NCBI GenBank assembly: GCA_044892505.1
Contig: CM097882.1
Coordinates: forward strand, 161,696,001 to 161,760,000
From: Schmidtea nova
Taxonomy: Eukaryota
DNA: 64,000 bases
Reading direction: 5' to 3'
Positions 6,731 through 64,000 of this stretch are shown here, one piece after another. The translations under genes and the position numbers were made by a program. Every line of letters starts with the position of its first letter. Position 1 is the stretch's first letter. The notes beneath the pieces are model-generated. The model ran no database searches, was not told the DNA's origin, and saw only the letters and a list, made by a program, of their open reading frames with translations.

Positions 6731-6873
6731 ACAATGACTTTCAAATTTACCAACATCTCAAATTTCAATGCTTCAATATGGAAGATTACTGTTTCGATAA
6801 TGCCCACACCAATCAACAATATCTACGAATTCCGAATAACAAAAACGTGGACACTTTGATTTTTTTAATTGTA

Positions 6874-22190: not shown

Positions 22191-22194
22191 ATTA

Positions 22195-24210
22195 TGTAGC
22201 CAAGGGGATAAAGACGAATGACAAGAAGATTAAAGAAATTAAAGATGCAGAGATACCGACATTCGCTAAACAATTGAGGTCGTTCCTGGGTATGACTAAT
22301 TACTACAGGAAGTTCATAAAAGATTACGCAAAGATTGCTGAACCGTTGTACGCAGCCACTTCCGGATGCGGAAAATGATTAATTGGTCAGAAGATTGCAA
22401 TAAAAGTTTTGAATTGCTTAAAACAAAATTATGTGAAGCCTCAATCCTGGATTATCCAAGAGTAGAGGACAAATTTATTCAGGACATAGATGCCAGTTTT
22501 GGAGCCATTGGAGCCGTTCTGTGTCAAGAAAGAGGAGACCATACAGAGGTGGTTATTGAGTATGGGTCAAGATATTTAATGGCACACAAAAAAGGGTATT
22601 GTGTGACAAGGAACGAATTGCTTGCAATACACGAATATGTCTTATATTTCAGACAATATCTATAAGGGAAGACTTTTTTAGTACGAATAGATCACAAAGC
22701 ACTAGACTTCATGAGATACACCAAGAAACCAATAAGCCCACAGTTTACGACATAGCTAGCTGACCTTTCCGGATATGACTTCGACTTACAATATAGGAAA
22801 GGAGAATAACATGGGAATGCAGACGATATCTCAAGGATCAAGGGGATGTTATGAAAAGGGGAGTTATATAAATTGTTGATTGTTTAAATAATCTAAAGAG
22901 AGGTTTATCTTTAATGCCAGACACAACATGAAGACGCGAAAGAGGAAAAAACAAGAGTTAGACATATTAGTATATTACAGAAGACTTAATCAATGACAAG
23001 ACTATTACACATGTCAAGGGTATTACTGGGAAAAGAGAATGGAGAAAATCTGAACAAGAAGAAATTCCCTTTTAATTTGCTGAAGAACACAAAATTTGAA
23101 AACGTATTATTACTGCTTGAGAAAGACGGAAAGGATGTAGTATTAGTACCATTTGACTACACTAATACATTAGTCAAAGATATACATAGAGAAATGTGTC
23201 ATATTGGAGTGAAGAAATTACCAAGTTACATGAGCGATTTATTTTTTTGGCCGAATATGCAAGGAACAATTCAAAGCTGTTTAAGATCATGTGAAATATG
23301 TTGTAAACGGAAGATAGTACAAGAGAAAACAAAGGAACGACTGATACCGATAATGAGTTCAGATTTCTTAGAACAACTGGTTGTAGATATAGCCCACATG
23401 AAATCTCAGGGAAGTTACAGATATTTATTAGTTATTATTGTCCGTTTTAACAAGATGGTTAGCGTAACTGCACTGGAAACACAAGATGAGAAATCGTTGT
23501 TCAAAGCCATATTAGAGAAGTGGATATATAGATTCGGTAAACCACGAAGTATTTTATCAGACAAAGGTAAGAATTTCGACAGCATGTTCGTGAAGACACA
23601 TCTAGCAAAGTTAAGCATCGAACAACACCTGAGCTCACCATACCAACACCAATCGAATGGGCTGGTGGAAAGGACAATACGAACAGTCAGAGACTTATTA
23701 ACAACTTCTATATTCAGTGGATTAGGGGAGAAAATTGGGTAGATTTACTCCCACGTATAGAATTTTGTATCAATGCAACAACACAGAGTACAACAGGATT
23801 CTCACCATTCGAAATTGTTTTCGGGAGGAAAGTTAATCTCCATTCAACACTACCAAACAAATTTGAACGCAACCGAAATACGCAAGCAGGTTCTAGCAAA
23901 CAGTGAAAGAGCAGCAAAACGAATGAAAGAAACAGAGACGCATAGAAGGACGCATAGAACTTTTGAGATAGGGGAAAAAGTATTGGTTCAGAAAGAACCA
24001 CAAAATCGGGACAAAGATGGCCTTCAGTACGACGTTCCGTTCGTAATATCAAGATTTTTGTCAGAACACCAAGTGGAGCTGATCGATGGAGATTCAAAGA
24101 AACTTCGACTTATCGAATGGCTGAAGAGATGGGCAAATCCTTAAAGAAAGGGGGAGTTATATTAATTGTTGATTGTTTAAATAATCTAAAAAGAGGTGTA
24201 TTTTTAAATA
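22195..24210 (+). mobile_element. Ty3/Gypsy pol relic (RT thumb/connection, RNase H, integrase) with PPT
   Basis: LRSFLGMTNYYRKFI; DASFGAIGAVL...ELLAI; HHCC zinc finger (HREMCH...CEIC); integrase VVDIAH / SDKGKNF / SNGLVERTIRT; GPY/F-like tail; purine tract AAGAAAGGGGGAG at ~24145. Stops and frameshifts are present. Confidence 0.92.
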
Positions 24211-24794
24211 AATTATTATCTTGAAATTTATATTTTTAATGAATTCAGAAGGAGACATAACTATGTGAACTAGAAATTATTCTCAGAAAGTTTTCGAGAA
24301 CATAAAGCTGATTGCTATAAAACCTATAAGCTATATTTATGTTGAGTTTTCACTAAAATTCTATTACATAAATGAAAACTTTACTAGTATACATTAATAT
24401 CATTTGAAAAATAAAGCCATACTGCATAATCTTTTAATAAATCAAAAGAAACTCCCAGAGTAATTGTCATAAGAGATAACATCCATAAATTCATATATTT
24501 CCAAAATCTATGAAAGTACACTCAACCGAGAACGAAGGATTGACTCTGCGAATTATTGATGACGATAATACTTCTTTCGTAGCCATCGGCACAAGAGATT
24601 CACGAGATAATCTTTCTTTGAACGATTATTCCTTAGTCGAAAAAAGAATCATAGTTGGAAAAAAGCATAATAAGGGAAAGCATAGCAGAAGATTGAATTG
24701 TTTTCTTTTCACGAAGATGATAAGTTTTTGCTTCGTTTAGAAGGATAGTGTGAGTGGTTGGCTTCAGTGATGCTCTGATGATTTTTGTAGCTGT

Positions 24795-25738
24795 TAGAAA
24801 TAGGAGTCCACGTGGATAAACGTGGAAGGCACCGAAAAGATGCGGAAGCAGATAAAAATGCTGCAAAATCAGGCCGCAGAAGATGCGTTCTAACTTCGCG
24901 CATTAAATATGACAGTCAAGCAACGGGACGCGGAACTCGCCAAACTAAAGATCGACACATGAATCATCGCAGCAGTGAAACCGAAAGTTGAATTCCCCGC
25001 CCTGGAGTTGTTCCCGGTTCGGGTAAGCGACTCATTCTCAACTCAAGTTCCATCAACAGAAGCTGTTGCTGATCGTCCAAAGAAATGGCGACCCAGCTAA
25101 GGAGTGTGTGCCCGTCGAAGACCACGTCAGAAGGCTCGACTTCTGGGGCAGCTCCGGAAATTGTCAGTCGAAACAATTGAATTATCTATCACTGACTAGT
25201 AATAAACATTCGTATTGTGGATCGTGATTTTTGTTGTTATACGTATTGTATTTTAGTGAGTTACTTCTACGTTGAGTGAGTGTGTCGAAGTGTTATTGTG
25301 TCCGTGTGAATGTTACCTAATGATAGTCAGCAAATTACGAAATTTTATTATACGACAAAGACCTTTTGCTCCGACATCTACAGCTAAGCTGTTTGTTAAT
25401 GCTTCGTTATAGATCTTGAGATGAACTTCAGTGACATGATCTTTCCTTCTTGTGATCGTCGTCTAGAACTTCAACAGCGGATTGTAGGATTAATTTTGAA
25501 TTAAGGGAGAAAATGGGCGCGACACCTTCTATCGGTAGCCCTTGGACCCAGGAGATACTCGATCAATCATAGTTTCAAATTTTCGACGCTCACTGATTGC
25601 GAATACCCACCCATTTGTTGCATTACCAACGTTAAATTGTGACGGGCAACAAGATGGTTAATCTAATATTTTGTATGTTGAGTTGTTGATGTGAGCCGTA
25701 ACAACGCCAAGGTCATATTGACGATCAACAACCCACCA
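24795..25738 (+). mobile_element. Orphan-ORF TG...CA family, copy C-right (degraded ORF2 plus terminus)
   Basis: Manual translation ESTWINVEGTEKMRKQIKMLQNQAAEDAF*LR...AELAKLKIDT*IIAAVKPKVEFPALELFPVR...RQKARLLGQL; AATAAA at 25201; ends TCAACAACCCACCA. Confidence 0.7.
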
Positions 25739-30847: not shown

Positions 30848-32377
30848 TCAATGTCGCTGATTCTGCTGAGGCGTTGGCCGCTGAGAATATACATTGTAAT
30901 CAATTCGGGCAGATTGAGTCGTTATGGGCTTCATACTTGGGGCGGATTTGGCATTTGCTGTCATGATTGACGAAGTGGCGTTACTAACGGGGGCAATAAT
31001 TTCATTGGTACTTTCGATGTCTAATAATTGACCTTCACCTCTGGCCAATACATCTCTGATTCTTGTGTCAAGTTCATTTTCATTTTGATATTCCGCAACA
31101 TATAATCTTTTATCTATATGTTTTGGAATAGCTTTAATTTCAGTATTCAATTGCGTTTCAATATTTTTTAATGCAAATCTATCATCATATGTGATTAAAT
31201 TAACAGCCACTCCTAAATGACCATATCGGCCCGATCGACCAATTCTATGTAGATATGTTTCGGCATATTTTGGAAAATCAAAATTAATCACAACGTTTAC
31301 TGATGGTATGTCTATACCCCTTGTAAATAAATCCGTACAAACCAAATTTCTACAATTTCCATTTCTAAATTCATGAAATACTCTATTTCTATAAACTTGA
31401 TTCATTTTAGCGTGAATATAATAACATGAGTAACCGAGATCCGTTATTTTTTTTGCTAATAATTCAACTCTTTGAGCAGTATTGCAGAAAATAATAGACT
31501 GATTAATTTGCAAACGAGAAAAAAGGGTATTTAAACAGTGGACTTTTTGACGCTCTTGAACATATGCATAATATTGTGAAATTCCTTTTAATGTTAGCTC
31601 ATCCATTAAATTAATTTCATACGGATCTCTCATGTGCTTTTCTAGAAATTGTTGAACAGATTGTGGAAATGTTGCAGAATACAACATAATCTGACGCTGA
31701 GCAGGTAATTTACTGATAATATAATCAATTACTTCTTCAAAATCTGCTGATAATAATTTGTCAGCTTCATCAATGACTAATATTTTACAAAAATTTGTGG
31801 ATACAATATCCCGTTTAATTAAATCATTAACGCGACCAGGAGTGGCTAAAATTATATGGACAGTTTGTTGGAGCCTAACAATATCATCCTTTAAACTTGT
31901 GCCACCCGTAGTAACCATTATCTTAGTTTCTGTGTGTTTAGCAAGTTCTGTACAAATTTGACTAGTTTGTAATGCTAATTCTCGAGTAGGAACTAAAATT
32001 ATTCCTTGGATTTGGTTAATGCTAGGGTCTATTTTTTCTAATAGTGGAATAGAATAAGCACCTGTTTTACCGGTTCCATTTTTAGCTCTGGCGAGAATAT
32101 CGCGACCGATTAATGAAATAGGAATGCTAGCTTCTTGAATAGGTGAAGGCATCTCCCATCCTTTTTCATAAATGCCTTTTAGTATATCTCGTTTTAGACA
32201 AAAATCGTCAAAAGAATTGCCTTGGGTTGCTGTTACATCAACCGTTTTAATACGATTATCTTTTTCAGGAATCTTAAGGTAGTTTTTCCATAATGCTTGA
32301 TCACTTTGTGTGTTAGATACACTGTCCCCACCTTGAATATTCATATTGACGTTGTTTCTATTCATAACTAAAATCAT
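30848..32377 (-). CDS. DDX6: DEAD-box RNA helicase DDX6/Me31B/Dhh1, intronless CDS
   Basis: [55 protein letters not shown]; 509 aa uninterrupted. Confidence 0.97.
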
Positions 32378-33096
32378 ACAAATATATAATGAAATTCAAA
32401 TATTTAAAAAACCGACATTTCTTTGTGTTACAAATACAATTTCGAAAACGAATCAATCAGATTTAAACAAATACAAAATATAAACAATGGAGATACATTA
32501 TACTAATCTTTAAATAATGTTATTTAATTTAATTAAATTAAAAAACTAAATTTATTCAATTGAAAATAAAACTTATAAAGAAAATTCTAAATTTTTAAAT
32601 AATTATTTTAGTTAATTATAGATTGCATTATACATTGCATTATAATAATTTATGAAATCATTAAAGAACTAAAAATTTAATTTATTTTTGTTTAAAAATT
32701 TCTAAAAAGATAAAATAAATTAAAATTTATTTATTTTTAATTTCATTAGAATAAGACATTAACAATATAATCTTTTGATAGTCACATATTATAAAAGTAA
32801 TTACAAGTAGAAATGCTGTTTTGTATTGAAAGAAATTTACAATCTCACTTTAAAAATTTTTAATAATACAAAAAATAATTTAAACCTACCAAAAAATTAA
32901 GTAATATGTATACCGGATTTAACATATATACACTAATATTATTATGCAACCAACCATAAAGTTCAAATATTCTTTACTGATTTATGAAATTCAACATAAT
33001 GTTGGGCTGAGGAAACCGAAAATAAATTCTGTTTAAATTTATCAAAAATTAAATATATACAAAAGGGAACAAGTTTAAAAAACGCACGATAAAGCT

Positions 33097-39731: not shown

Positions 39732-41719
39732 TTTATTATTATGACTTTAAAATCAATTGCACGCATCTTTATTGTCACCAACATCTGCGTTGATTTGAAT
39801 TCAATCGGTGTAGGTGTAGATTACCTACTGAGTTCACCCGTTGCTGATCAGATCAGTGAGTCGTACCAGAGTTTGTAGATAGTATATTGATCTCGACTAT
39901 TCACGCATGATGATATTATTTTTAACTCGTTTAATACTTCAATCAACTCTTGTCAACACATTCAGGCATAATCAATCCATTTCAGAACCATTCTCGTCAC
40001 GCATTTATCATCATTCTCTGCATCATACTCAACTAACGATGACCACACTCCTTAAGACAATTTTATGTCGAGACTCAGTGATCTCCGGTTCCCATAAGTA
40101 GCTTACATATGATAATGACAGGGTATGTTGGGATATTAATTCTCTAGCTGCAGCTCTCGTAGCTATTATTGGTTATCGTTACTCTACTGGAACGTGACCT
40201 CTAGATCGATTCGCGATATCCCATGTGCACTCTCCTTCCGATAAACTCAATTTAAGAAACCTAGGGTCTCGCCGCATCAGCACCTCATATGAAAATATGT
40301 TGTGCCGAGAGGCCGAGAATCCCGTCAGACCGTTAGGCCTTCGGGACGATCCTTATTGATTTTAATATTATTATGAGGGTTTAAATTCGATAAAAACAAA
40401 ATTAACAATACCTTTTATTTCGATTCCAAGTTTCGTATACAAACTTCAAAATTTCAGTAAGTTGTCAGTTCTCAACTGCAAATTACACTTGGTAAAAATA
40501 GTGACTGGTAAAAAGTGACCCTCATACTGATTTTGCTTCAGTATTTATACTAAATTGGTGTTGTTGGCCGGCCAATCAGCATCGAGTATGTGTGTATTTA
40601 TTGCTACTCATTTATGTTCGCCAGTCTTTCTGTATAATTTAATTCAGTAAGTTGTTTATTTAACCATGCGTTAATTCTTTGTTATAATTTATTTTTTTTT
40701 AGATGCTCGGTGATGTCCGCCCACGTCCTGTCATATTTTCAGCTTACCTGATTCGCATGGGTGAATTTTTATTGTTACTTTATTTTGATTTATTCTTTTG
40801 TTGTTTTCAGATTCTGCCGCGTATTGCTGACTTATTTGATGACGGTAATTGATTTTTGTTGTTGTTTTTATGTAAATTTATTTCATTGATTTTATATTAC
40901 TTTTCAGATGATGACTGATTTGCCTGGCCCAACAGTATCATGGTCATACTTCAAAGGTTAATGGTGGGTAATGAACCTTCAAACCTTTAAAAACCTTCAA
41001 GGGGTCCAAAATCTTTAAAACTATATAGTATATGTTTAATAAATATATCAAAGTAAAGGTAATTCGAAGGTTTTGTATGATGGTCATATAAAGGGTCCAA
41101 GGTTCAAATTTTTAAAACTATATAATATGTATATCGAACAAAAGCTAATTGACAGATGAGTATAAGAGATGGTGTGTGTGTGTTCGAAAATATTTTTCTA
41201 CCAGTATTTTAAAAAATTTCCTACCCCAATTGCAACAAAGACATTGCAATACAGATGCAAGTTAACAAAGACATTTCAATGCCAAAATCCTTAACAAAGA
41301 CATATCAATGCCAAAATAACTAAACAAAGACATTTCAATGCCAAAATTCCTTAACAAAGACATTTTAATGCCAAAATAATTCTACAAAGCCAATTCAACG
41401 CCAAATTCCTTAACAAAGACATTTTAATGCCAAAATAATTATACAAAGACAATTCAATGCCAAATTCCTTAACAAAGACAATTCAATGCCAAAATAACTG
41501 TATAAAGACATTGTAATACCAAAATACCTTAACAAAAACATTTCAATGACAAAAACCTTAACAAAGACATCTCAATGCCAAAATTATTTACCAAAGACAA
41601 TTCAATGCCAAAAATCTTAACAAAGACATTTCATTGCCAAATTCCTTAACAAAGACATTGCAATGTAGATGTAAGTCAATAAAGACATTGCAAGCCTGAT
41701 TAACAAAGACATACATGCA

Positions 41720-43204: not shown

Positions 43205-43908
43205 AAATAATACGATATGAAAGGTCGTGGATTTAGAGTATAATATAGAAAAAAGAAAAATTTGCTAAATCTAAAAATTCTATTATTTTATAAATTTTAT
43301 AAAAATTTTAAAATGTATTCTGATTCACATAGGAAAATTACAAATTGAAAAATTTATTCTAATATGAATTTGGTATTATAAATTTACTATTAGAAATAAT
43401 ATATCATATATTATTTCTAATCAGCGGCGGAACTACTGGACGCAGGACCCTGCGTTGCGGGGGGGCCTACCAGCTATAGGGGGCCCTCATATAAAAAAAA
43501 TTATACTATCAATAATATTTATACTATAAAACTCTTTTCCGCAGGTCTAGTGGGCCCTAAAATATAAAACTTGGTTAAAAAAAATGTCATCCATCGTATT
43601 AAAATATATTGTTCAAAAATTTATATAAATAAATATCTATTTAATATGTGAAGCTTTATTTTTTTAAAAAAAACATTCTTTTGCGGGGGGGCCCAAATTT
43701 TGAAGTTCCGCCACTGTTTCTAATAGTAAATTTATAATATCAAATTCATATTAGAATAAATTTTTCAATTTGTAATTTTCCTATGTGAATCAGAATACAT
43801 TTTAAAATTTTTATAAAATTTATAAAATAATAGAATTTTTAGATTTAGCAAATTTTTCTTTTTTCTATATTATACTCTAAATCCACGACCTTTCATATCA
43901 TATTATTT
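43205..43908. repeat. ~200-bp-arm palindrome with a hAT MITE inserted near its centre
   Basis: 43205-43396 is the near-exact reverse complement of 43717-43908; centre TAATATATCATATATTA. Confidence 0.9.
43422..43716. mobile_element. hAT MITE
   Basis: TIR CAGCGGCGGAACT / AGTTCCGCCACTG and an exact 8-bp TSD TTTCTAAT. Confidence 0.92.
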
Positions 43909-52414: not shown

Positions 52415-53829
52415 ACCGGTCCGTTCAAAGTAATAACTATTCAACCAGGCAACAATACGATAACGATTCTCCTTGAAAATTTTCACAGAACCGTAAACTT
52501 ATGCAAAGTAAAACCTTGTTACAACATTGAGGATGATTGAGTTGTTTCCATTTCTAACAGTTATTTTTGTCTCTCTTTTCTTCTTCCGATTTTCAGATCG
52601 TTCCACTTCTTATGTTGGGGGGCTGTATGTGGTGACCTTTTATCTGCTAAATCTTAATTCTTAATTATTAAAAATTGATTAGATAAAATTATTAAAATAT
52701 ATTTATAATTAATCATGCATTACCAACATTGAAAAAGAACTAACTTTGTTTTAATATTCTAGATGGGAAAAAAATGGAGGAAAATAAAATTGTATTAAAA
52801 CTAAATGTTGTTCATTTCAATTTTCAGTTCTATCTTTTATTAAACAAAAACTGAACAATGGTTTCAGAAGAAAAAAACTCAAATTAAAAAGCATTTTTGC
52901 ATCGATAATTGCAAAAAAATTGATCAAAAAAATTTCTATCAATGTCGATCTGATAATGAAAAATAACAGAAAATGGCTACAAGAATGCACAATGGTGGTC
53001 AATACCAACTTCCACTATCACTATCACAGATCCAGCTTGCTCAACAGCAACAATCATCATTGGCAGTCAGCAAAATATCAATTTCGATAATGGAATCTCA
53101 AATGCAAATCAGCAACTTTTGCAATCATCGTATGGAAATATCATTCGACAGTCGATGGAAAGAATTATTTTATCGGAGATTAAAAACGGGTTGGATTTTT
53201 TTCAATTGTTGCTTAATGCACATTATTTTAAGTAAATTTAAAATAAATTGTAATTTAAATTTTTATGTAGAATTTCCTAATCGTAAAATAATACATTATA
53301 ATGTTAAAAACCCCTCATTAGCGCTTAGCTCTGTACTTCCTTTAGATGGCATAGGAGATTGTTATTGCACTTCGAATGGAAGGACTATTTCTCTCGATAA
53401 ATCATTTCGTGATAATGAGATCGCTTCTGGATCTATGATTCGTATCCTCCCACGCTTGAGAGGGGGCACCAACTATGATGTAGATAATGACAATCGAGCT
53501 TATACAAATTACACCGGTCCGTTCAAAGTAATAACTATTCAACCAGACAACAATACGATAACGATTCTCCTTGAAAATTTTCACAGAACCGTAAACTTAT
53601 GCAAAGTAAAATCTTGTTACAACATTGATGATAATTAAGTTGTTTCCATTTCTAACAGTTATTTTTGTCTCTCTTTTCTTCTTCCGATTTTCAGATCGTT
53701 CCACTTCTTATGTTGGGGGGCTGTATGTGGTGACCTTTTATCTGATAAATCTTAATTCTTAATTATTAAAAATTGATTATTAAAAATTATTAAAATATAT
53801 TTATAATTAATCGTGCATTACCAACATTG
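52415..53829 (+). repeat. ~315-bp direct duplication (52415-52725 / 53513-53829): Gypsy integrase GPY/F tail, PPT-like GGGGGG and TGT LTR-like start
   Basis: The two copies are nearly identical, encode TGPFKVITIQP and contain TATGTTGGGGGGCTGTATG. Confidence 0.75.
52973..53638 (+). CDS. Chimeric ORF: Q/S-rich N-terminus, ubiquitin-like domain ending RLRGG, then Gypsy integrase tail fragment
   Basis: 53261-53467 reads FYVEFPNRKIIHYNV...NGRTISLDKSFRDNEIASGSMIRILPRLRGG, which follows the ubiquitin-fold pattern; YTGPFKV follows. Confidence 0.55.
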   Translation: MATRMHNGGQYQLPLSLSQIQLAQQQQSSLAVSKISISIMESQMQISNFCNHRMEISFDSRWKELFYRRLKTGWIFFNCCLMHIILSKFKINCNLNFYVEFPNRKIIHYNVKNPSLALSSVLPLDGIGDCYCTSNGRTISLDKSFRDNEIASGSMIRILPRLRGGTNYDVDNDNRAYTNYTGPFKVITIQPDNNTITILLENFHRTVNLCKVKSCYNIDDN

Positions 53830-53890
53830 TATTATTCATGTTAATAATAATAATAATAATAATAAAAATAATAAAAATTTTGGGATGATA

Positions 53891-54118
53891 CGTGGTGCGC
53901 CCAATAAGTACTGTCACTCATAAAGAAAGGCATTAGCAAAACTCATGGTATTTTGAGGATTCAACAGGCACCCAATATAGAGTCTATTACTCAAACTAAT
54001 TTATATGCTGGTTCATACACGTTTTACAGCGAGATGCGAGTTCCAGGAAGATTTTCTGAAGAATTCTTGAAACTTATTCTTGAAGAACTCCTCCACTGAA
54101 CACCGAAGATATTCTTTG
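53891..54118 (-). mobile_element. mariner 3' end truncated by the Polinton insertion
   Basis: TA-CGTGGTGCGCCCAATAAGT TIR (same family as 4652); C-terminal KEYLRCSVEEFFK is cut exactly at AGTAGG. Confidence 0.75.
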
Positions 54119-54400
54119 AGTAGGCAGTTATGTGCCATCTGACTCATCATTATTACGTAATTATTACGTAATATATTACATAACAAAAGACTATTACGTA
54201 ATCGATGGCCCCTCCCTCCCCCTTTTTTTTACACACACACAGACGATGAGTCATAAAAATTTTTTTTAAGGTCAAATTTTGAGGTTACTTTAAGGACATT
54301 TTAAGGTCAAATTTTGAGGACACATTAAGGACCAGTTAAGGTCAAGGTCATCATGATGTCAAGGTCATGCTAAGGTCAATTTTTAAGGTCAAAAATTCAA
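54119..54400 (+). repeat. Polinton terminal region with TTACGTAA x3, TGACTCA/TGAGTCA and AAGGTCA x7
   Basis: Read directly at 54140-54395. Confidence 0.75.
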
Positions 54401-54516
54401 AAACATAAAAAACATAAAATTTTACAAAACATTTTTTCAAAAACACAAAGTGAGAATTAATCAACATTTATTAATAAATACACATATATATATATATGAC
54501 AACAATGTTATTCCAA

Positions 54517-54960
54517 CTATGCAATTCTTGCGCTTTTTATCTTCCAAATTGGAGACATTGATTCTTTTTGATCGATTTTATATCCTTGGATGGATATATC
54601 AATAAACCAATTTTCATTATCCGTATGTTCAACTGATTGAAATGCATCATGAAATTCAGTGTTCCTGTTGTTGATGAATATAGTTTCATTGCAAGATAAT
54701 TTCTTGTTGATTTTCGTCAACACTTTATTGATTGCAACAACATCTTCTTTATAAATCTGACCAATCAAGTTGGAATATTGCGAAGTCGAAAGCTTTACCG
54801 GATTTGGGACCTTGAAAGAGATTTCGTTTACCAAGAAAAACATTTGGTAATCGTGAAACATCTGAACCGGTCGTAAATCAAATTTGTTTTGAGTTGATTT
54901 GTTATCGTTCCTAACTGGTTTCATTTTAATTGGACTCAATTTACTGAAAAGATTTTGCAT
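54517..54960 (-). CDS. Polinton hypothetical protein (147 aa), possibly an OB-fold ssDNA-binding protein
   Basis: Intact ORF with upstream TATA (GAGTATAAATA) and CCAAT motifs. The SSB idea rests only on the beta-rich C-terminal pattern DISIQGYKI...PIWKIKS. Confidence 0.6.
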   Translation of the reverse strand: MQNLFSKLSPIKMKPVRNDNKSTQNKFDLRPVQMFHDYQMFFLVNEISFKVPNPVKLSTSQYSNLIGQIYKEDVVAINKVLTKINKKLSCNETIFINNRNTEFHDAFQSVEHTDNENWFIDISIQGYKIDQKESMSPIWKIKSARIA

Positions 54961-55187
54961 TTTATGAACAATTCTATTTTTGTTTTCTTATTTATACTCG
55001 TCATCGTCTGTGTGCAGCCAATCAGATTCTTGCACATGTCTTGTAAATCAATTGCACATGTCTTGCTAATCAATTGGCTATGTATTAATAATTGACTTTG
55101 TATACATGTTGATGATTATCTACTGCAATTTCTTTCTATATATGTTGTAAGTTATTTACATATCTATCGCAATTTTATTGTCTATCC

Positions 55188-55256
<69 letters not shown>

Positions 55257-55418
55257 TACTAAAATTATTTTCTATTATAATATTCAATAAATATTCAACA
55301 TCAACATTTTATAAAAATTAATTTTAACTACAAAACATCTTTCATAACTCGTTTTAAGAAAATAAATACTTTATAAAATTTTGTACACAGATATCTTGCG
55401 TGTGTGTGTGTGTTTGAT

Positions 55419-55613
55419 ACAAATAAAAGTACGCATTGAACGCGCGTGAAACGCGCGTTCTTCTTCCCTTGTTGTTTGAGACAAATAAAAGTACGCATTG
55501 AACGCGCGTGAAACGCGCGTTCTTCTTCCCTTGTTGTTTAAGACAAATAACAGTATGCAATGAGCGCGCGTGAAACGCGCGTTCTTCTTCCCTTGTTGTT
55601 TAAGACAAATAAC
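55419..55613. repeat. Three 62-bp tandem repeats, each with the hairpin AACGCGCGT-GAA-ACGCGCGTT (third imperfect)
   Basis: Units start at 55419, 55481 and 55543. Confidence 0.92.
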
Positions 55614-56320
55614 AAAAATTATAAAAATTCCAACAATCAAAAACTAAAATTTAAATTAATAACATTTATTAAATAACATTTGTAAAATAACATTTATGCA
55701 TATCATGCACTGTCAATAATAATAATAATTTATAATAATAAAGATGTTATTAATAATAAAAACTAAGACATAATAATTAAAACTGAGAATAAGTTATAAC
55801 TTATATTCAAATATTTTACAAATAAAAATGTTAACACAAAATTTATTCACAATTTGCATTGATTAATATGTGGATTGATTGATTGATTGAAATGTGGATT
55901 GAGCTTCTAAATAATTTTACGAATTGTGTATGTTGTAAGGTTTCTGTTTTATTGATTACTGTTTTGATTTCTGTTTTATTGATTGAATGATTGTTTGATN
56001 NNNNNNNNNNNNNNNNNNNNNNNNNNNNNNNNNNNNNNNNNNNNNNNNNNNNNNNNNNNNNNNNNNNNNNNNNNNNNNNNNNNNNNNNNNNNNNNNNNNN
56101 NNNNNNNNNNNNNNNNNNNNNNNNNNNNNNNNNNNNNNNNNNNNNNNNNNNNNNNNNNNNNNNNNNNNNNNNNNNNNNNNNNNNNNNNNNNNNNNNNNNN
56201 NNNNNNNNNNNNNNNNNNGTTGACGGCTCATTTTGCAATTGTCTTGCTCGCCGTTCCAGGTATTCGGTTATTCTCCTGGACTCTTGGTCTTGATCAATCG
56301 GAGGATCATCTATAAAAGTG

Positions 56321-59068
56321 TCACCCCCCCCGATAGTGCCCATATGCCAAAGATTTATTTTTAGCAACCCAGTTGCGTTTGTCATCGTTACATGTCAGTG
56401 CTGTTTTGTGATTATTTATGCTGTATAGTTGATGATTTTTGCTGATGATCCTAAACTGTGGAACTGTATATATTTTATTATTATTATAACAGTCAAAGTA
56501 ATTCGCATGATGAAGCCCCGCATCTTTCAATGTTATTCCCTTTGCTTTTATACATTCCTCATCACCCAGCAAGCTATAACATTTTGGTCGTAAAAATACC
56601 CACTCATCGTATTTGAGTCCTTTATTCTCGTCTTTGAATTTTCCAATGACAGAATCAAGGCTCCTCGAATACAATGGATGATTAGGGTCATAATTGGATG
56701 TATCTAATAATTCATCCCTAATCATCGCGGACAAAAGAATATTTAGTTTGCAGTTTTTGATTTCCAAAAAGAAGGAATCAGTGTCTCCAGCTACAATATT
56801 TATTACGCAGTTAAATTGTTCGCGATATTTTTGCAGCTCATTATATTGTAGCTGGTACATTCTCAGTTTAGATAGATCTAGTACAGTCTGACCGATGTAA
56901 CTAGGTCTATCTAAACACACTGATTGCTTCCTTAGCAAGACTGAAATCAAATTATGATCAATTTTGGTAGTACTACGGAAATATGGACTACTACAATATG
57001 TCATTAATTTTGTTGTAGAATTGCACAAACGTAAATTAATGCGTTTCTTTAAATTTTCAACAGTCTTGCCGTAAAGACTGTTGTTTAATAATTTATAAAA
57101 GTCTTTATCTATCTTTGTGGTGGATGAAGCTCTTAAATTTGTGTTGGTGTCCACATAATCTTTGAACAATTTACTTTGTGAGAAACGAATTGCTCTGTGT
57201 GTTTTTGTGACTATAACACCTAATTGTAAAAATATTTGTAAAAGTCTCCAATGGAGAACATAATTTGTTTTTGAATAATGTGTTAACATCAATTTTTCAA
57301 CCTTTGAACCAGGAGCACACATCTTTTCAGCGGCTAGTGGAAGATCATCCACGTAGTCGTGAATAGATGCCGGTATTTCTAAGTCTACTTCTATGGTATA
57401 ACCATAGCTAAGCAGACTTAGATCTACCGTAGTGCATTCAATTAATATATTATTTAATAATTGGTCATCCGTGACCCAAACAAAGTCTCCGTCCGGTAAA
57501 TTTTGAGATAAAGCCCAGCCATACAGGTTGTTGATATCTATATACAACAGCTCTGTATCTGAACTTGATTGAACAAAATGTTTATTTACGAAAGTTAACC
57601 CTCCTCTGATACCACCCTCAAAGAAGTTATACATCTCCATGTCAGTTAACAGTGTAATGGGATGTTCCAAAGTCATAAGAGCCGAACTCCAACTCATACC
57701 TGGAATTCCCAGAAAATTTAGTGGCTCGAGTTTATTGTGTGCGATACTCCTTGCACGAAATTGTTGGAAATAATCTGCCAAAAGAAATACGTCGAGTTTC
57801 AAATAGACCATCATGTAATCGAAAAGCGAATTACAATTGGTCTCTCTCCATATTCTTTTAGCCATTTCATAATCAGAATCGGTCACACCACTCCAAATTG
57901 GTGGTAATTCAGAAGTTGACCTCAAAACTTGCAACGATGTAGCAGCATCATATGGGAAAACTCCCTTAGATGTTATTATTGAACCCGTGAATTCAGATGA
58001 AGTCAAAGGAAATGATGTTAATGTTTTCACAGCTGTATCGAGAGATTTATTGACAAACTGATAAGAATCAATGAATTTTACAGTCAGTGAACCAATTCTC
58101 GCGTAAAGACTGAGAAATTTCTCACTAGTTACTGGGACACAGCTTATATTCCATTTCTCATATTTAGACAAGCCAAATTTGAGGATATGATGGAGATCAT
58201 ACCCTCTCAAATTGTGAAACACAACTGGCAGATTGTGACGAATTTGTCGCGAAAGATTGCATTTTGAGCAAGCTGCTCCAAGATACTTCCCGTTATAATG
58301 ATCATGATCCATAACAGGTTTCTCAATTAATTTTTTACATAAATAGCAATGAGTGGATGTACAAAAATTTTCAATGACCTCGTCGGTTAAAATAATAAGT
58401 TTATTAAAATTATTATAGTAAAAAGGTGATACAATATTTTTACTAATTTTCTCAATTTCATGGAGAAATTGATCTACACATTCCGATCCGTAAAAAGATT
58501 TATAAAATTTATCTCCAGTGAGATTATTAATACACAAAAGCCCTGCTGAAATGGGTAAGTGTTTCTGATAATATTTAGAGTCCTTAGGCAATATTGCTTC
58601 GAAATCAGCATAGATTACAAAGGGAGGAGTGACAGTTTTCTTCCAGTCATCAAATTCGAGAAGGGGATTTTCGGGTAAGGTATACAAGGTTGTACCTAAT
58701 TGGTTTTTATCGCAAAGACCACGATGACGAAGAAAAGTATCATTATTTCGAAAGCCGTTAAGACACCTAGGACACCATTTACAAGAAATTCTCACTTGGG
58801 TAATTGAAGCATTTTTACAATTTAAAAATTTGTTTATATCATTTATACCAGTGTAATGAAATTTATCTTTCTTTTCCAATAATAATAAATTTATAGGTGT
58901 GGGAGAAACAATCTTACTTTTATAAATTATGTCGATGAATGGATGTTTCAACACCTCGTCTTTATTTGTTAAATCAATTAATGCTTTTTCATTATACGAC
59001 AAAACATTAATTGATAACCCAGGATTTTGCAGTTCAAATTTAGCAATGTTCTGAAGTTTCATGGGCAT
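56321..59068 (-). CDS. polB: Protein-primed family B DNA polymerase, core (915 aa)
   Basis: ExoI YADFE, ExoII FHNLRGYD, KGVFPY, GIRGG, PolA YIDINNLY, PolB KLLNNSLYGK, PolC AGDTDS, GKFKDE, RPKCY; endonuclease VII-like insert C..C...DHDHYNGKYLGAACSKCN. Confidence 0.97.
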   Translation of the reverse strand: MPMKLQNIAKFELQNPGLSINVLSYNEKALIDLTNKDEVLKHPFIDIIYKSKIVSPTPINLLLLEKKDKFHYTGINDINKFLNCKNASITQVRISCKWCPRCLNGFRNNDTFLRHRGLCDKNQLGTTLYTLPENPLLEFDDWKKTVTPPFVIYADFEAILPKDSKYYQKHLPISAGLLCINNLTGDKFYKSFYGSECVDQFLHEIEKISKNIVSPFYYNNFNKLIILTDEVIENFCTSTHCYLCKKLIEKPVMDHDHYNGKYLGAACSKCNLSRQIRHNLPVVFHNLRGYDLHHILKFGLSKYEKWNISCVPVTSEKFLSLYARIGSLTVKFIDSYQFVNKSLDTAVKTLTSFPLTSSEFTGSIITSKGVFPYDAATSLQVLRSTSELPPIWSGVTDSDYEMAKRIWRETNCNSLFDYMMVYLKLDVFLLADYFQQFRARSIAHNKLEPLNFLGIPGMSWSSALMTLEHPITLLTDMEMYNFFEGGIRGGLTFVNKHFVQSSSDTELLYIDINNLYGWALSQNLPDGDFVWVTDDQLLNNILIECTTVDLSLLSYGYTIEVDLEIPASIHDYVDDLPLAAEKMCAPGSKVEKLMLTHYSKTNYVLHWRLLQIFLQLGVIVTKTHRAIRFSQSKLFKDYVDTNTNLRASSTTKIDKDFYKLLNNSLYGKTVENLKKRINLRLCNSTTKLMTYCSSPYFRSTTKIDHNLISVLLRKQSVCLDRPSYIGQTVLDLSKLRMYQLQYNELQKYREQFNCVINIVAGDTDSFFLEIKNCKLNILLSAMIRDELLDTSNYDPNHPLYSRSLDSVIGKFKDENKGLKYDEWVFLRPKCYSLLGDEECIKAKGITLKDAGLHHANYFDCYNNNKIYTVPQFRIISKNHQLYSINNHKTALTCNDDKRNWVAKNKSLAYGHYRGG

Positions 59069-59763
59069 ATCTTGTGGGTCAAAACGAAGAGAAGAAAGAT
59101 TATAAGAAGAAGGTTGATTGCGTAAATCATCATCAATTTCGTCATATTTTATGACTGATAAAACACTATATAGGAAACATAGTTCATCGGTGTTAATAAC
59201 ATTAACTATGCAGTTTTTACGTTTAAGTGAAGTCGGCGTATCAATAAATTGTCAGCCGCTTAATCGTGAAATTTGTGAAAATTTAGTTAATACAAAACTA
59301 ATATATTCAATTTTATTAATTACCCAATTTGAACCCTTTTCATTCATTTGGGTTATTTTTTCATTAAGAAGTGTAATACCTTCATCAATGAAAGTATTAC
59401 TCCAAAGCCGGGCAGAATTTGAGATGATGAATGATTGATATTCATTATCCTTCTCAAATTCTACCTTTATACAAAATTGAATTTTAACTGATTGCATTTT
59501 TATAACAACATCATTTAATTTATTTAAAAGGATAGTCGGAACAGATAAAGATTTAAAGTTGAAACGCGAGACATCCATCTTTATAATTATATGCAATTTA
59601 TTTAAATCAGATTCAATCTCTACAAGACCAGATCCAACCTGATTAATACAAGGTATTATTTCTTCATCAGACGAAATGACAATTTCCTCATCACTGATGA
59701 CAATAACTTCTTCGTCATCACTGATTTCAACTATTTCAATTAATTTGTTGGGAACGCAGTCCA

Positions 59764-59809
<46 letters not shown>

Positions 59810-60285
59810 TAATAATTTGGGAACGCAGTCCACATTAATATTATTATTATTATTACTTAATAATTTGGGAACGCAGTCCACATTATCGGTCATTGTTTCC
59901 TTATTGTTTGTGGTTTTAATTAATTTTGTGGGAACACAATCCACATTATCATTTAGTTTTCTTTTATTTATTTTGATGGGATCGCAGTCCACATTAGTTT
60001 TTGATGAAATATATTCTTTTGGTAAATTTTGTTGTATATTAGTTTGTAAAACATTTTTTGTAATATTAATTGAGTTAAAAAGATTCTTTTTTGATGGTTT
60101 AAATTGAGATAGATGATTTTTATGATTATTGTAAATTTCTGTATAACCTATTGTTTCTTCAGTTTTACATGTGGGACATATTAGGTGGGTGACACTGTTA
60201 TATTTTAGCGAATAGTACTTTTCCATAACTACATGACAGTTATTATTATGAAAAGTACTATTGCAATATGCAGTATAAAGACGGC
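59069..60285 (-). CDS. N-terminal part of the same pPolB frame, separated from the core by one TGA (59252-59254)
   Basis: EKGSNWVINKIEY...RLSG*QFIDTPTSLKRKNCIVNVINTDELCFLYSVL resembles the conserved Polinton PolB N-terminal block and is in frame with 59068 (183 nt apart); splice acceptor TTTTAATTCAG at 60286. Confidence 0.8.
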
Positions 60286-60835
60286 CTGAATTAAAATACA
60301 ATAATAAAAATATTTATCAAAATATTTTAAAATAACAATTATTTTATTCTATTACTAAACTAATATTGAATTTATTNNNNNNNNNNNNNNNNNNNNNNNN
60401 NNNNNNNNNNNNNNNNNNNNNNNNNNNNNNNNNNNNNNNNNNNNNNNNNNNNNNNNNNNNNNNNNNNNNNNNNNNNNNNNNNNNNNNNNNNNNNNNNNNN
60501 NNNNNNNNNNNNNNNNNNNNNNNNNNNNNNNNNNNNNNNNNNNNNNNNNNNNNNNNNNNNNNNNNNNNNNNNNNNNNNNNNNNNNNNNNNNNNNNNNNNN
60601 NNNNNNNNNNNNNNNNNNNNNNNNNNNNNNNNNNNNNNNNNNNNNNNNNNNNNNNNNNNNNNNNNNNNNNNNNNNNNNNNNNNNNNNNNNNNNNNNNNNN
60701 NNNNNNNNNNNNNNNNNNNNNNNNNNNNNNNNNNTTACTAATAAGATATCTTATATTTAAATTATAAAAACATTAACACTTAATAAAAACTTAAAATTTA
60801 ATAAAAATTTATATAAATAAATAAAAATTACTTAC

Positions 60836-61302
60836 ATTTTTGTCTACCATTAAATCGCTCATCAAACACATCATTGATTTCTGCTCCATTTTCATATTTA
60901 TTTTCTACATTTTCTTGCTTATTTACAAGATTATTTTCTTCATTTTGGTGATTATTTTCTGCTATAAAATTAATTGTAAATTAATAAAGAAAATATCAAA
61001 TATGAAATTATTACCATCTATATCCACATTTAGTTTCTCATTTCAACTTGCAGCATAGAACTGATTTGAGAATTCGACATTTCTAACTAAAATGTAAATA
61101 ATAATAATTTATTATTTTTAAAAATATAAAATTTTTTACCATTTGCATTTTTATTTTCGATCATAGGGACGTTGACGACATTCATTGTAGAATTAAAGTT
61201 AACTGAAAAATTATATATTTATATAAAAATAATTAATAAAATAGATTAAAAATTACCATTTTTCTTCATCATATTTTTGATATCTCTTGAAAGGTTCTCC
61301 AT
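60836..61302 (-). CDS. Four putative 5' mini-exons (61302-61257, 61202-61140, 61086-61015, 60961-60836), probably of the pPolB gene; one TGA at 61043-61045
   Basis: GT-AG introns of 54, 53 and 53 nt, all phase 1. Exon 4 ends at a GTAAGT donor, and the acceptor at 60286 is also phase 1 (a gap lies between). Confidence 0.65.
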
Positions 61303-61655
61303 TTTTCTTTGTAAAATAATAATTTTAAAATGTTTTTAAATGATTTGTTTTAATTGTGATGAAATAATGAAAACATATAGTATATATATCACGTTTATTA
61401 CAAACTTTATTACAAACTTTATTCAAGAGCCAATCAGATTCGATATAGGGTAGAAAAAGTATGTTACGCTCACACACACATAGTATTTGTATTAACATAC
61501 ACACACACATGTTATACACTATGTAACGTTATATATATAATATTTACTAACACATGATTAATCATGCACGATGAATGCAAGGGTCATGCATGATAACTGC
61601 AGGGGTCATGCATCTTTTATTGCAAAACAATTATTTTTAATTAAAAAAAAAAAAT

Positions 61656-62075
61656 TTAAATTTTCAAATAATCTAAAACCCCCACCAAGCAACCTTTATA
61701 AGCACAGTTTGTGTGATCCCGATATGGACATGAAATATTGTCAGGAAAAACTTCTACTTCCTTAACATTATACTTAATTAATTTTAGGGACGGAAAATAT
61801 CTTTTTAAAACAGTAAGTTTATCTTGATCAGTCACATAGAAAATCGCATCAACATCTTCAATTTCTTTCGAAATACATGTTGGACAAAAGTGGTCTTCCC
61901 CTTCATACCATTCTAATCTGTCATGTTCACCAATTCCAGCCCAAAAAGGAACATCATTATATATCCAATATCTTGGTCGAAAAATATTATTAACATTCAT
62001 AATACATAATTCTTTAATAACAATCCCTCCGCAATTATCATTATAACCATAAATATCAATAAAATAACAAGTCAT
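61656..62075 (-). CDS. Polinton hypothetical protein (139 aa), DnaQ/DEDD-fold-like N-terminus with Cys/His C-terminus
   Basis: FIDIYG...IKEL...LEWYEG...C.P.RDH.NCA motif pattern, recalled from insect-virus/Polinton orphan families. Confidence 0.55.
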   Translation of the reverse strand: MTCYFIDIYGYNDNCGGIVIKELCIMNVNNIFRPRYWIYNDVPFWAGIGEHDRLEWYEGEDHFCPTCISKEIEDVDAIFYVTDQDKLTVLKRYFPSLKLIKYNVKEVEVFPDNISCPYRDHTNCAYKGCLVGVLDYLKI

Positions 62076-62106
62076 TTTTCTAATAATATTTATTAAACTA
62101 AATTGT

Positions 62107-62490
62107 TTATACTTTTAACATAGAATTAAGCCATGCAAGGCAATATTGTCCACATGTAATTGTTAATGGATGCTGATACCGAATTTTATTATATACAATC
62201 GGTTTACCCAATGTTTGCAGTTTACTAACTAATAAACCGGGATAATAACATCCGAAGGGATCGAATGCATATACATTGCTTGGTTTCACATATACAGCAA
62301 TCCAATGTTCTCCGCCTAGAGTAGATGATTGAGTATTGACGACTATGGCTTGGTTGACATCTAAATAAGGGATTTTATCTAATGGATAGACTCCAATAAA
62401 TTGATTTCCTAACAACTGTTTTCCAATTCGATTAACCTGAATAGAACTATATAAATAAATATATTTGATAAATAATAAAACTTACTCCAT
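62107..62490 (-). CDS. Adenain-like (C5) cysteine protease, 2 exons (62490-62486, 62446-62107), 114 aa
   Basis: GGEHW (His), FDPFG (Asp), YQ (oxyanion Gln), TCGQYC (Cys). Splicing out 62485-62447 gives MDSIQVNRIGKQLLGNQFIGVYP. Confidence 0.88.
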
Positions 62491-62557
62491 GACAAATTGT
62501 TAATTTTAACTTGTACATTTATAATGATAGTTTGAACCAGTAATGTCTGAGCTCTGC

Positions 62558-63778
62558 TCAAACTAATACTGTTCGATTAGCAGTAATTTGAATTTCATTT
62601 TCAAAAACTCCATATATTATTACATGTACTGGTTCTTCAATGGCTTTAGCAAACTTGATATCCAATCTCAAATTTCCATTTTGAGGTAATTGACTTTGAT
62701 TTAAATCGAAATCCGGAGCCAAAACAAATGTAAAGAATGGATATTTGTTTTTAAAATCAGCAAGATTTATACCACAATTTAAGTTCTTATCTAAATATCC
62801 CATATTTCTGACCATCGATTGCATATATGTAGTACAATAATTATCATTTTCGAAATCTTGAGTATATGTTTCTCGATAATCAGTGTTTTTCGATAAAGAT
62901 AGAGAAGTTACATTGAAATGTTTGAATTTCGAACTTGATGCAGTATATGATCCATTGTATTGAGTTTCACTTTGAAATGCGACCAGAATAAAATTTGGCA
63001 TTCTTCGATCTCCAAATATTTGTTCCTTGTAGAAAGATGATGCACCTTTACCAATAGCAAATTGTACTATTTCTTTGGTTTTCATTGGATAAATAGCGTG
63101 TTTTGAGTTAAGTCCAACTTGATGTCCAGCTAATACAGAGGGTTCAACGCGAACGCGACGAATCATTAACTTTGCATCAACTAATTGACATTTTGGTGCA
63201 CCGTTTTTTGAATAAAGTGATAGTGAAGAATCAGATCGCTTCAGTCTGATGTGAACATTGACACCTGGTAATAAATATTTCGGTTGATCCATGAAATCCA
63301 GTTGTAGAGATGAACACATTGTAAATAGCTTTGAGCCTTTGATCCACGCTTTTCTCTCGTCAGAATCTCCATATCCCATTGGAGTAAGACAAATTTCTTT
63401 AGTATCACCATTATAATTTAAAATAGTTTCGATTATTGCTTTGTGTGCATATGTATTGTTTCCACCTTCAATTTTGATATTATTAAAACCAAGAATCGCG
63501 TCCTTGAATAGAGTATGAAACATAAAATTGTTTGGTATAACATCATCAGTTGCAGACAAATCTTTTTTATCGGCATTTACAACTTTTATTTGAACTGTTA
63601 GTAAAGTATCATTCAAATCCAAATATTCAGATTGAGATCCGTTAATGTAAAATTCCACATCATTTCTACCGTCTGTAATAGAATTCATGGGAAATACTTC
63701 TTCAAATGCACCATATTCAATGACTGCTTGAGGAGATGGTCGGTCGAAAAGACATAATTCAGATTTACCACAAATCAT
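62558..63778 (-). CDS. Double jelly-roll major capsid protein (Polinton/adintovirus hexon), 406 aa, intact
   Basis: KSELCLFDRPSPQ...EF.ING...YLDLNDT.L...QPKYLLPGV...GNLRLDIKF pattern of Polinton MCPs; lies adjacent to the protease gene. Confidence 0.9.
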   Translation of the reverse strand: MICGKSELCLFDRPSPQAVIEYGAFEEVFPMNSITDGRNDVEFYINGSQSEYLDLNDTLLTVQIKVVNADKKDLSATDDVIPNNFMFHTLFKDAILGFNNIKIEGGNNTYAHKAIIETILNYNGDTKEICLTPMGYGDSDERKAWIKGSKLFTMCSSLQLDFMDQPKYLLPGVNVHIRLKRSDSSLSLYSKNGAPKCQLVDAKLMIRRVRVEPSVLAGHQVGLNSKHAIYPMKTKEIVQFAIGKGASSFYKEQIFGDRRMPNFILVAFQSETQYNGSYTASSSKFKHFNVTSLSLSKNTDYRETYTQDFENDNYCTTYMQSMVRNMGYLDKNLNCGINLADFKNKYPFFTFVLAPDFDLNQSQLPQNGNLRLDIKFAKAIEEPVHVIIYGVFENEIQITANRTVLV

Positions 63779-63999
63779 TTTGCAAATATAATTCCATGTC
63801 CTTTCATTCGATTGTTTATATACCTTCGATGCTTTATACGTCTAGGCCCCACTTGTTCCGGTTCAGGTTCAGGCTCATCTTTATTAATCATACTTGCAAC
63901 ATTAGGAATCATACTAGTCACAGTAGGCAGTACTTTGCCAATAGCAGACAAGGCATTTGTTTTCAATGATCGTAGTATTTTCTGATCATTCATGATCAC
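63775..63999 (-). CDS. Small virion-protein candidate upstream of MCP (may start beyond the window)
   Basis: Amphipathic helix ALSAIGKVLPTVTSMIPNVASMI, basic patch, MKGH/G motif; the stop overlaps the MCP start (ATGA). Confidence 0.6.
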   Translation of the reverse strand: MIMNDQKILRSLKTNALSAIGKVLPTVTSMIPNVASMINKDEPEPEPEQVGPRRIKHRRYINNRMKGHGIIFAK

Positions 64000-64000
64000 A

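Follow-up and report, generated by a model that had tools for sequence, protein, structure and literature searches.

One end of a Polinton/Maverick element lies at 54119..64000 of the window, by which we mean the whole 64-kb stretch of DNA analysed. This call stands: the stretch holds a double-jelly-roll capsid gene, an adenain protease and a protein-primed DNA polymerase (pPolB), together with one terminus. The host appears to have an AT-rich, animal-like genome and may be a flatworm; its DDX6 gene gives 624 bits with human DDX6 and 592 with yeast Dhh1, a difference too weak for placing it. The features of the locus are the following, with the strand in brackets where one applies.

53889..54118 (-): decayed mariner 3' end (TA, terminal repeat, transposase C-terminus), host flank that ends at the Polinton terminus; alignment with the mariner end at 4648-4848
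54119..54420 (no strand): putative terminal inverted repeat region, starting AGTAG, with direct repeats of AAGGTCA type and, at 54151-54202, short palindromes, from sequence and repeats; inner boundary approximate
54517..54960 (-): 147-aa ORF conserved in related elements; tblastn to L002 (33%, E 1e-12) and L021 (28%, E 3e-7)
55411..55612 (no strand): short tandem repeat, ~3 units of ~62 nt; 78 nt align at 91% in self-BLAST
56000..56218: assembly gap, 219 N
56321..60226 (-): pPolB gene, 1,301 codons with one in-frame stop; translation, homologues, fold model and motifs
59252..59254 (-): in-frame stop, codon 325, in the linker that joins the terminal-protein (TP) domain to the vOTU domain; translation and fold model
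60377..60734: gap in the assembly, 358 N
60836..61302 (-): putative multi-exon accessory gene, 4 exons, 1 in-frame stop in exon 3; exon map
61656..62075 (-): ORF139, 139 aa, conserved throughout the family at a place downstream of the protease; matched by tblastn in at least 16 loci (best 42%)
62109..62446 (-): exon 2 of the maturation protease (adenain), which holds the His, Asp, Gln and Cys; Pfam Peptidase_C5 and alignment
62447..62485 (-): predicted GT-AG intron, 39 nt, phase 2 in protease codon 2, 90% AT, position conserved in the clade
62486..62490 (-): protease exon 1 (ATG plus two bases, 5 nt)
62558..63778 (-): major capsid protein (MCP), double jelly roll, 406 aa, open; ORF and fold model
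63775..64000 (-): 3' part of a conserved basic ORF that precedes MCP in relatives and exits the window; tblastn to 5 loci, 34-40%

The capsid gene had been described as intact, and it is: its ORF is open, and the fold was confirmed with an AlphaFold model (pLDDT 91.3) that Foldseek matched to iridovirus MCP (E 1.5e-16, TM 0.63) and mavirus (E 2.3e-13), as well as to PBCV-1 and Sputnik. Its Atlas match scored 0.98 (PF21738 on 15% of the matched cluster), and a PDB sequence search with MCP gave 0 matches. Pfam returned no match for MCP, the N-terminal piece of pPolB, ORF139 or the 5'-open ORF, and none above cut-off for the 147-aa ORF. ORF139 scored 0.96 in the Atlas to eukaryotic clusters, with Maelstrom (0.86) and an exoribonuclease (0.81) as leads; it possibly has a DEDD-type nuclease fold, which we give as a lead. 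The accessory gene has three GT-AG introns of 53-54 nt, all phase-1 and 89-94% AT, plus a fourth donor ahead of the gap, and no homologue was found for it among 70 related loci.

MCP, adenain and pPolB had been taken to make the element capable, in principle, of forming virions. These three alone do not establish such a capacity; ATPase, penton and integrase lie outside the window, though relatives have them. Within the 64 kb we found no integrase, ATPase, penton, second terminus or target-site duplication. Related loci encode an ATPase, an rve integrase and a penton-sized ORF upstream of MCP; in L002 and L021 the integrase (Pfam rve E 1e-12) and the ATPase (Pox_A32 above cut-off) were recognized, while their penton-sized ORFs had no Pfam match. 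The pPolB segment sits between the two N gaps, so that its order relative to the capsid module rests on scaffolding; in a mapping that covered 56219-64000, no host contig could be aligned across the N gap. The orientation of pPolB is opposite to that of the window in L002, L007 and L021, and L023 shows the same gene order as the window.

The element end starts with AGTAG where mariner homology stops; its partner terminus is absent from the window, and the terminus sequence had no match among the 70 related loci. The flank aligns to the other mariner end in the window with 137 identities, 51 mismatches and 26 gap positions. For the mariner body the score is 54, where 300 shuffles reach 32 at most; the DNA to the right of 54119 scores 24, which is the shuffle level; local alignment extends the homology to 54087. 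The insertion had been described as recent-looking and as cutting a mariner. The 3' end of a mariner relic does adjoin 54119, but the mariner frame is itself disrupted, and this decay means that the relic cannot date the Polinton insertion. The other half of the mariner lies beyond the window.

The proposal of a young lineage of this host is supported by abundance and condition, and in three host datasets the family has the look of a young one with many copies. In each of them 6,116-7,586 contigs map to the stretch, and 1,346-1,705 of these match it at ≥99% identity, in a mapping that covered 56219-64000 and in which runs are contigs and summed depth is not a copy number. Changes at conserved columns (MCP 4/121, protease 0/30, pPolB 9/278) are all within the range of the relatives and show no excess damage. 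Contig pieces with 0-1 differences have a depth of 504-1,843 and diverged pieces one of 5-24, which is a hint only. A soil metagenome run contained a small number of nearly identical pieces (depth 3-4), which is not enough to name a habitat. In viral contigs, a single pPolB query found 0 relatives among 6 pattern matches and an MCP alignment query 0 among 18; a pPolB alignment query found 5 among 111, all 26-32% identical.

The polymerase had been described as a 915-aa PolB core. The corresponding ORF (56321-59068) is present, but it is merely the downstream part of a 1,301-codon TP-vOTU-Exo(HNH)-Pol gene with a stop at codon 325. Domain folds and motifs place the TP at residues ~207-320, the vOTU at ~329-466 (Cys350, His457), an exonuclease with an HNH/EndoVII insert at ~626-660, and polymerase motifs A, B and C, so that the TP-vOTU-Exo-Palm layout is present in a gene cut by one stop. 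In the fold model, the TP-like domain reaches Z 8.0 against a Y-family little-finger fold (rmsd 2.6, 92 aligned), and the OTU domain is recovered with Z 6.5 (rmsd 3.3, 97 aligned); the stop is model residue 131, between the matched ranges 13-126 and 135-272. There are 598 homologues, the best with 57% identity over 99% of residues 200-1301, and the closest relatives found are metagenome proteins at 50-60%. Pfam Endonuclease_7 scores below its cut-off (E 6e-4, 20.1 against 23.6), and PF02945 is found on many homologues. PF03175 has no match in the window pPolB, though many close homologues carry it; the PolB of Alpha adintoviruses is of the PF03175 type and that of Beta adintoviruses of a divergent type (PMC8502044). 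An intron spanning the stop was considered and rejected, as both flanks align with homologues without a gap.

With this stop and a second one in the accessory gene, the copy as assembled is not near-intact, contrary to the original prediction. We conclude that the pPolB stop is not programmed, judging from the sequences of other copies: it is absent from all nine host contigs that cover the codon, and codon 325 is open in the four related loci that cover it. Among 120 homologues, 88 align across the position, 86 with a residue and 2 with a gap. A functional stop, used either for programmed read-through or for an adenovirus-like split between TP and polymerase, is therefore extremely improbable, and the next ATG, codon 387, lies past the catalytic Cys350 of the vOTU. 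In its favour, the bases after the stop presumably resemble a read-through context. The position too is suggestive, as adenovirids and a coral polinton are split in the same TP/vOTU linker, according to bioRxiv 10.1101/2024.03.18.585575. The same contigs raise a different doubt: none of those listed carries the stop, so that it may be an assembly error and not a mutation, with the reservation that contigs drop rare variants. In that case the copy would be near-intact and potentially active, and the lack of excess change at conserved columns and the open frames of MCP, protease and ORF139 agree with it. We nevertheless regard this as unlikely. One copy among many is easily lost from contigs, and at many further listed places the window disagrees with the contig depth entirely or almost entirely, as an independently ageing copy would. 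Further, the accessory-gene stop, absent from most contig depth, is present in 13.5 of 30.3 depth in run X3, and at least that stop is real DNA. The copy itself is an ordinary insertion, slightly decayed. Other copies are without the pPolB stop, and for this reason related copies may possibly still be active.

The prediction of a protease with a full catalytic set was correct, with the addition that splicing would be required for its start. Peptidase_C5 matches above cut-off (E 7.8e-6, 26.1 bits against 21.3), and none of the 17 aligned sequences departs from the others in the His, Asp, Gln and Cys columns. The frame has no in-frame ATG, and a start would need removal of the 39-nt intron; unspliced RNA would read Met-x-stop and end at codon 3, so that protease production and capsid maturation would need host splicing. 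The phase-2 intron occurs in 15 of the 35 protease-bearing related loci, which represent 11 distinct elements (13 loci were found by script and 2, L011 and L012, by eye, having no anchor). In 13 of the 14 cases read by script, window included, its acceptor precedes the anchor by 18 codons, and intron lengths are 37-43 nt, mostly not multiples of 3. Gene callers read through the intron in independent ENA/Logan proteins, where the donor signature was present in 2/16 and the acceptor signature in 6/16. No joint matching the protease intron was found among 15 of 145 joints, which come from DNA contigs. Of the 4 introns described in the window, a general intron scan recovered 2; the many candidates that it gave in relatives are uncontrolled, and so are leads only.

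Since splicing is here read from DNA only and GT..AG pairs are frequent where DNA is AT-rich (the 54-kb host part has 8 candidates), the 39 nt could instead be an unspliced AT-rich spacer, the protease being made from a non-AUG codon or by another route off the MCP transcript. We hold this to be very improbable: in the 11 distinct elements the distance of ATG-NN-GT(A/G)A and the codon that holds the AG stay the same while the intervening bases and lengths differ, a pattern that shuffling reproduced in 37/10,200 trials. Moreover, an exact intronless counterpart exists, in L009 and L054, whose proteins start M-D-S-L-Q, compared with M-D-S-I-Q for the spliced window protease. Splicing of the intron is thus the reading we infer. 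In an MCP phylogeny (a quick IQ-TREE search, with L054 left out for its too short MCP fragment), every intron row falls inside one 17-row clade with SH-aLRT 100, and this clade contains one exact intronless member. The intron label changes 2 times on the tree, against a shuffled mean of 10.9, and 0/500 shuffles were as low, a test that near-copies inflate. The tree points to a single gain of the intron in the ancestor of this capsid clade, with inheritance since, and capsid maturation would appear to depend on host splicing.

Taken together, the stretch is probably one end of a copy that was inserted recently and belongs to a Polinton/Maverick family with many copies and an HNH-bearing pPolB, its own pPolB broken after insertion into an old mariner relic and its protease intron gained once in the clade ancestor. 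Polintons insert by means of an integrase, replicate from their termini by protein priming and carry a capsid module that an adenain protease matures, and this family would operate in the same way. It would differ in the start of its protease gene, where an exon of 5 nt is followed by a short intron of spliceosomal type that would have been gained once in the clade ancestor and then inherited, and making the protease would require the host spliceosome. After insertion, a nonsense change would have arisen in pPolB between its TP domain and its vOTU domain, and another in the accessory gene; as assembled, the broken copy would be unable to make the full TP-polymerase and mobile only with help from other copies. 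A more speculative proposal, which we think doubtful but worth stating, is that in a whole clade of still-mobile animal Polintons the 5-nt exon and a protease intron of 37-47 nt, retained in elements as far apart as 46-60% MCP identity, form a splicing switch that sets the timing or amount of protease, and hence transposon or virus behaviour, the exact loss in L009 and L054 coming from a spliced, reverse-transcribed copy.

Core genes of animal Polintons are usually described as intron-free, and surveys call copies intact by unbroken ORFs. In PMC8097293 an 'intact' Maverick has every core ORF uninterrupted and intronless, and the present copy departs from this by its pPolB stop and its protease intron layout. 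A conserved protease intron implies that ORF-based screens truncate or miss the protease across the whole clade, and would suggest that the clade has long been transcribed in the host nucleus and has made use of the spliceosome there. Spliced versus unspliced protease RNA would offer a simple read-out for whether animal Polintons switch on the capsid module. Among the papers that our full-text literature searches returned, none describes a spliceosomal intron that is inherited in the protease gene of animal Polintons.

Animal Polintons/Mavericks (vertebrate, PMC8097293; nematode, bioRxiv 10.1101/2022.07.12.499685) are the adintoviruses (PMC8502044) or Eupolintoviridae. The window shares with them the double-jelly-roll MCP, the adenain protease, a pPolB with an N-terminal OTU domain and a putative terminus starting with AG, and its close relatives share the rve integrase, the A32-like ATPase and the penton-sized ORF. 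It differs in that an intron is present throughout the clade in a core gene, that of the protease, and the pPolB of this copy is interrupted. The HNH/EndoVII insert in the exonuclease region recalls pPolB2-class Polintons of terrestrial nematodes and oomycetes, a likeness by description (bioRxiv 10.1101/2023.08.22.554363). The TP and OTU domains on either side of the stop match the layout given in bioRxiv 10.1101/2024.03.18.585575, and the break falls at the boundary where adenovirids and the Stylophora polinton have the TP split from pPolB. Unlike theirs, the split in the window is not common to other copies and has no proper start after it, and for these reasons it reads as damage and not as architecture. 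Spliceosomal-type introns inside polinton-like viral elements are also known from dinoflagellates, where introner transposons are their source and most of them arose after integration (PMC12166617). In contrast to those introners, the intron of this clade is old, short, AT-rich and inherited at a single shared position, in elements whose MCP is 46-60% identical to that of the window.

The stretch 54119-64000 is a real Polinton end, as originally predicted, with all genes on the minus strand. Its parts, from the window's end inwards, are as follows.

Outermost, at the window's end (-): tail of a basic ORF, which precedes the capsid gene in relatives
Next inward (-): 406-aa major capsid protein (MCP), protease, ORF139 (a conserved 139-aa ORF), small gene (putatively multi-exon), N gap, protein-primed DNA polymerase (pPolB)
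Past pPolB: N gap, 147-aa conserved ORF, repeat-rich terminal region
54119: start of the repeat-rich terminal region, AGTAG

A capsid model built from 110 sequences (pLDDT 91.3) matched an iridovirus double-jelly-roll capsid (E 1.5e-16, TM 0.63), and also those of PBCV-1, mavirus and Sputnik, bearing out the predicted MCP gene. The protease, for which a full catalytic set had been claimed, indeed scores above the Pfam adenain cut-off and keeps its His, Asp, Gln and Cys. In many related metagenome loci (L006, L014, L009, L002) the MCP stop overlaps or closely precedes the protease ATG, suggesting that their translation may be coupled; the spacer in the window is ~70 nt. On its left, position 54119 adjoins a mariner 3' end, alignable with a second mariner terminus elsewhere in the window. 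The mariner body at the junction scored 54 (maximum of 300 shuffles, 32); the DNA to the right was at shuffle level. Of the recent insertion proposed to cut a mariner, the mariner end is present at the junction, but this mariner is decayed and therefore gives no date. Its other half and any target-site duplication fall beyond the window.

Protease exon 2 has no ATG ahead of the catalytic residues. Upstream of it, the sequence from 62490 runs ATG, two bases, GTAAGT and then an AT-rich stretch up to an AG at 62447, a layout that we read as a putative phase-2 intron of 39 nt, whose removal would give a protein starting M-D-S-I-Q. Querying metagenome contigs with the capsid alignment yielded 70 loci, 35 of which extend to the protease. 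By script, 13 of these 35 have the intron layout, 20 are intronless with the ATG in place and 2 lack the anchor, a reference point downstream of the acceptor; in these two (L011, L012) we read the layout by eye, with an intron of ~47 nt. After merging four near-identical pairs, the 15 intron loci represent 11 distinct elements. Intron length in the scripted cases is 37–43 nt. Counting the window, 13 of 14 have the acceptor 18 codons ahead of the anchor, and L023 has it 16 codons ahead. When the upstream 100 nt were shuffled, the pattern arose in 37 of 10,200 trials. With a GT(A/G)A donor in phase 2, translation of unspliced RNA would give Met-x-stop in all of them. Among 16 protease homologues from other sources, the donor had been read through in 2, and an acceptor signature followed intron-like residues in 6.

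The capsid tree, from a quick IQ-TREE search on 35 rows (L054 excluded as too short), places all intron rows in one clade of 17 (SH-aLRT 100), which includes the intronless L009, and the intron label needed 2 changes versus a shuffled mean of 10.9. In L009 and L054 the protease begins M-D-S-L-Q, which corresponds exactly to the start predicted after splicing. The intron would have been gained once, long ago, by this clade and kept since, with one exact loss, and its retention predicts that protease production needs the host spliceosome. That it serves as regulation we consider rather unlikely, and it may be a tolerated neutral gain. The small gene (61302-60836) contains three further putative introns of 53–54 nt, all in one phase. 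Uncontrolled candidates for short introns were also seen in L023, at 3029 (ORF139 homologue) and 3639 (pPolB start), and, several of them, in the 5' part of pPolB of L009 (2582-3190), whose protease has none. The clade is not uniform in gene order. In the window and in L023, pPolB lies after the capsid module with the same orientation; in L002, L007 and L021 the two converge.

In PMC8097293 the genes of intact vertebrate Mavericks showed no introns, consistent with Kapitonov and Jurka 2006, and bioRxiv 10.1101/2022.07.12.499685 describes core genes as intronless and cargo as intron-bearing. Dinoflagellate polinton-like elements are reported to contain introns derived from introners, most of which arose after integration (PMC12166617), and group I introns are mentioned for cryptophyte PLVs (PMC12220804); bioRxiv 10.1101/2024.03.25.586562 mentions splicing and introns once each, and 10.1101/2025.02.07.637071 mentions neither. 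Full-text literature searches turned up no account of an inherited protease intron in animal Polintons. The putative clade-wide protease intron sets this Polinton family apart.

The pPolB frame runs from 60226 for 1,301 codons, with a single stop at codon 325. The predicted 915-aa PolB does exist as an ORF, but it starts at codon 387 of this interrupted gene, so the description of the element as near-intact is contradicted as assembled. A pPolB query with X at the break retrieved 598 homologues, the best with 57% identity over 99% of residues 200-1301; among the 120 listed, 88 span the break (86 with a residue, 2 with a gap) and the remaining 32 start later. A structure model of residues 195-524 (pLDDT 90.6) shows two domains, matching the little-finger fold of Y-family polymerases (model residues 13-126; Z 8.0, rmsd 2.6, 92 aligned) and OTU proteases (135-272; Z 6.5, rmsd 3.3, 97 aligned). 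These Z values are middling but agree with the modelled domains being the terminal protein (TP) and OTU-type protease (vOTU) domains that bioRxiv 10.1101/2024.03.18.585575 describes for polinton pPolBs. The linker between them contains the stop, at model residue 131. Since that preprint reports that TP is naturally split off at this point in adenovirids and a coral polinton, we tested the stop as a possible family feature. This was ruled out: the frame is open in all four related loci that span the site, and nine of nine covering contigs (3, 5 and 1 in three host datasets) differ from the window. Because no listed contig carries the stop, it may be an assembly error. An HNH/EndoVII-like insert in pPolB, whose Pfam match is below cut-off, recalls by description the pPolB2 class (bioRxiv 10.1101/2023.08.22.554363). 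The N-terminal region (59740-59996, -) holds about five imperfect short Cys-Val-Pro repeats and a poly-Asn run.

About 70% of sampled words occur in four sequencing runs from a single organism (three samples of one study) and 8% in a soil metagenome run, none of them recorded as RNA; the assembly may derive from these runs, and the tool's depth is not copy number. Contigs placed on 56219-64000 numbered 7,586, 6,116 and 6,692 in the host datasets and 43 in a fourth dataset, with 1,705, 1,346, 1,527 and 3, respectively, at least 99% alike, which points to many related copies, some probably very close to that of the window, and upholds the proposed young lineage as a young multi-copy family. The window's proteins are no more altered at conserved columns than those of relatives (MCP 4/121, relatives 0–11; protease 0/30, 0–3; pPolB 9/278, 4–26). 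A second stop, in exon 3 of the small gene, is missing from most depth and supported by 13.5 of 30.3 in one run. The picture would be that of a young copy with a few private changes.

Polintons integrate by an rve integrase and are copied by protein priming from their termini, the TP being cut off by vOTU and the capsid module matured by adenain (PMC8502044). From this copy, as assembled, TP alone could be made and, at most, a polymerase missing both TP and the vOTU cysteine; the element would thus depend on other copies to move. In L002 and L021, ATPase and integrase lie upstream of the capsid gene, where the window ends. Planarian Polintons are silenced by piRNA, according to PMC8532177; how far this applies here depends on the host.

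Next to the ATPase, L002 (2175-2618; Pfam TBP, E 2e-17) and L021 (2420-2866; E 5e-18) encode a TBP-like protein, which L001 seems to carry also, in two frames. Genes for a ubiquitin-conjugating enzyme (L021:225-722, E 2e-12) and a dual-specificity phosphatase (L018:919-1260, E 1e-20) lie at the edges of related elements and are possibly cargo.

The window is AT-rich eukaryotic scaffold with seven N gaps, containing mariner relics, satellites and an intronless DDX6/Dhh1 RNA helicase gene (30848-32395, -). Together with the type of element, these features suggest an animal-like host. The repeats of the window are these.

1-2600, 15500-16900, 41195-41670: satellite arrays
8259-8511: near-perfect 126-nt hairpin
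21254-25606: 104-nt inverted pair flanking an integrase region, presumably gypsy-like
43205-43908: 192-nt inverted repeat pair, 99% alike

A mariner at 4648-5438 has an internal deletion and retains its two terminal repeats together with a DDE fragment. A 221-aa ORF (52973-53638, +), of which a part recurs at 52415-52731 (97% identity), contains a ubiquitin-like segment ending in what we take to be an LRGG-type motif.
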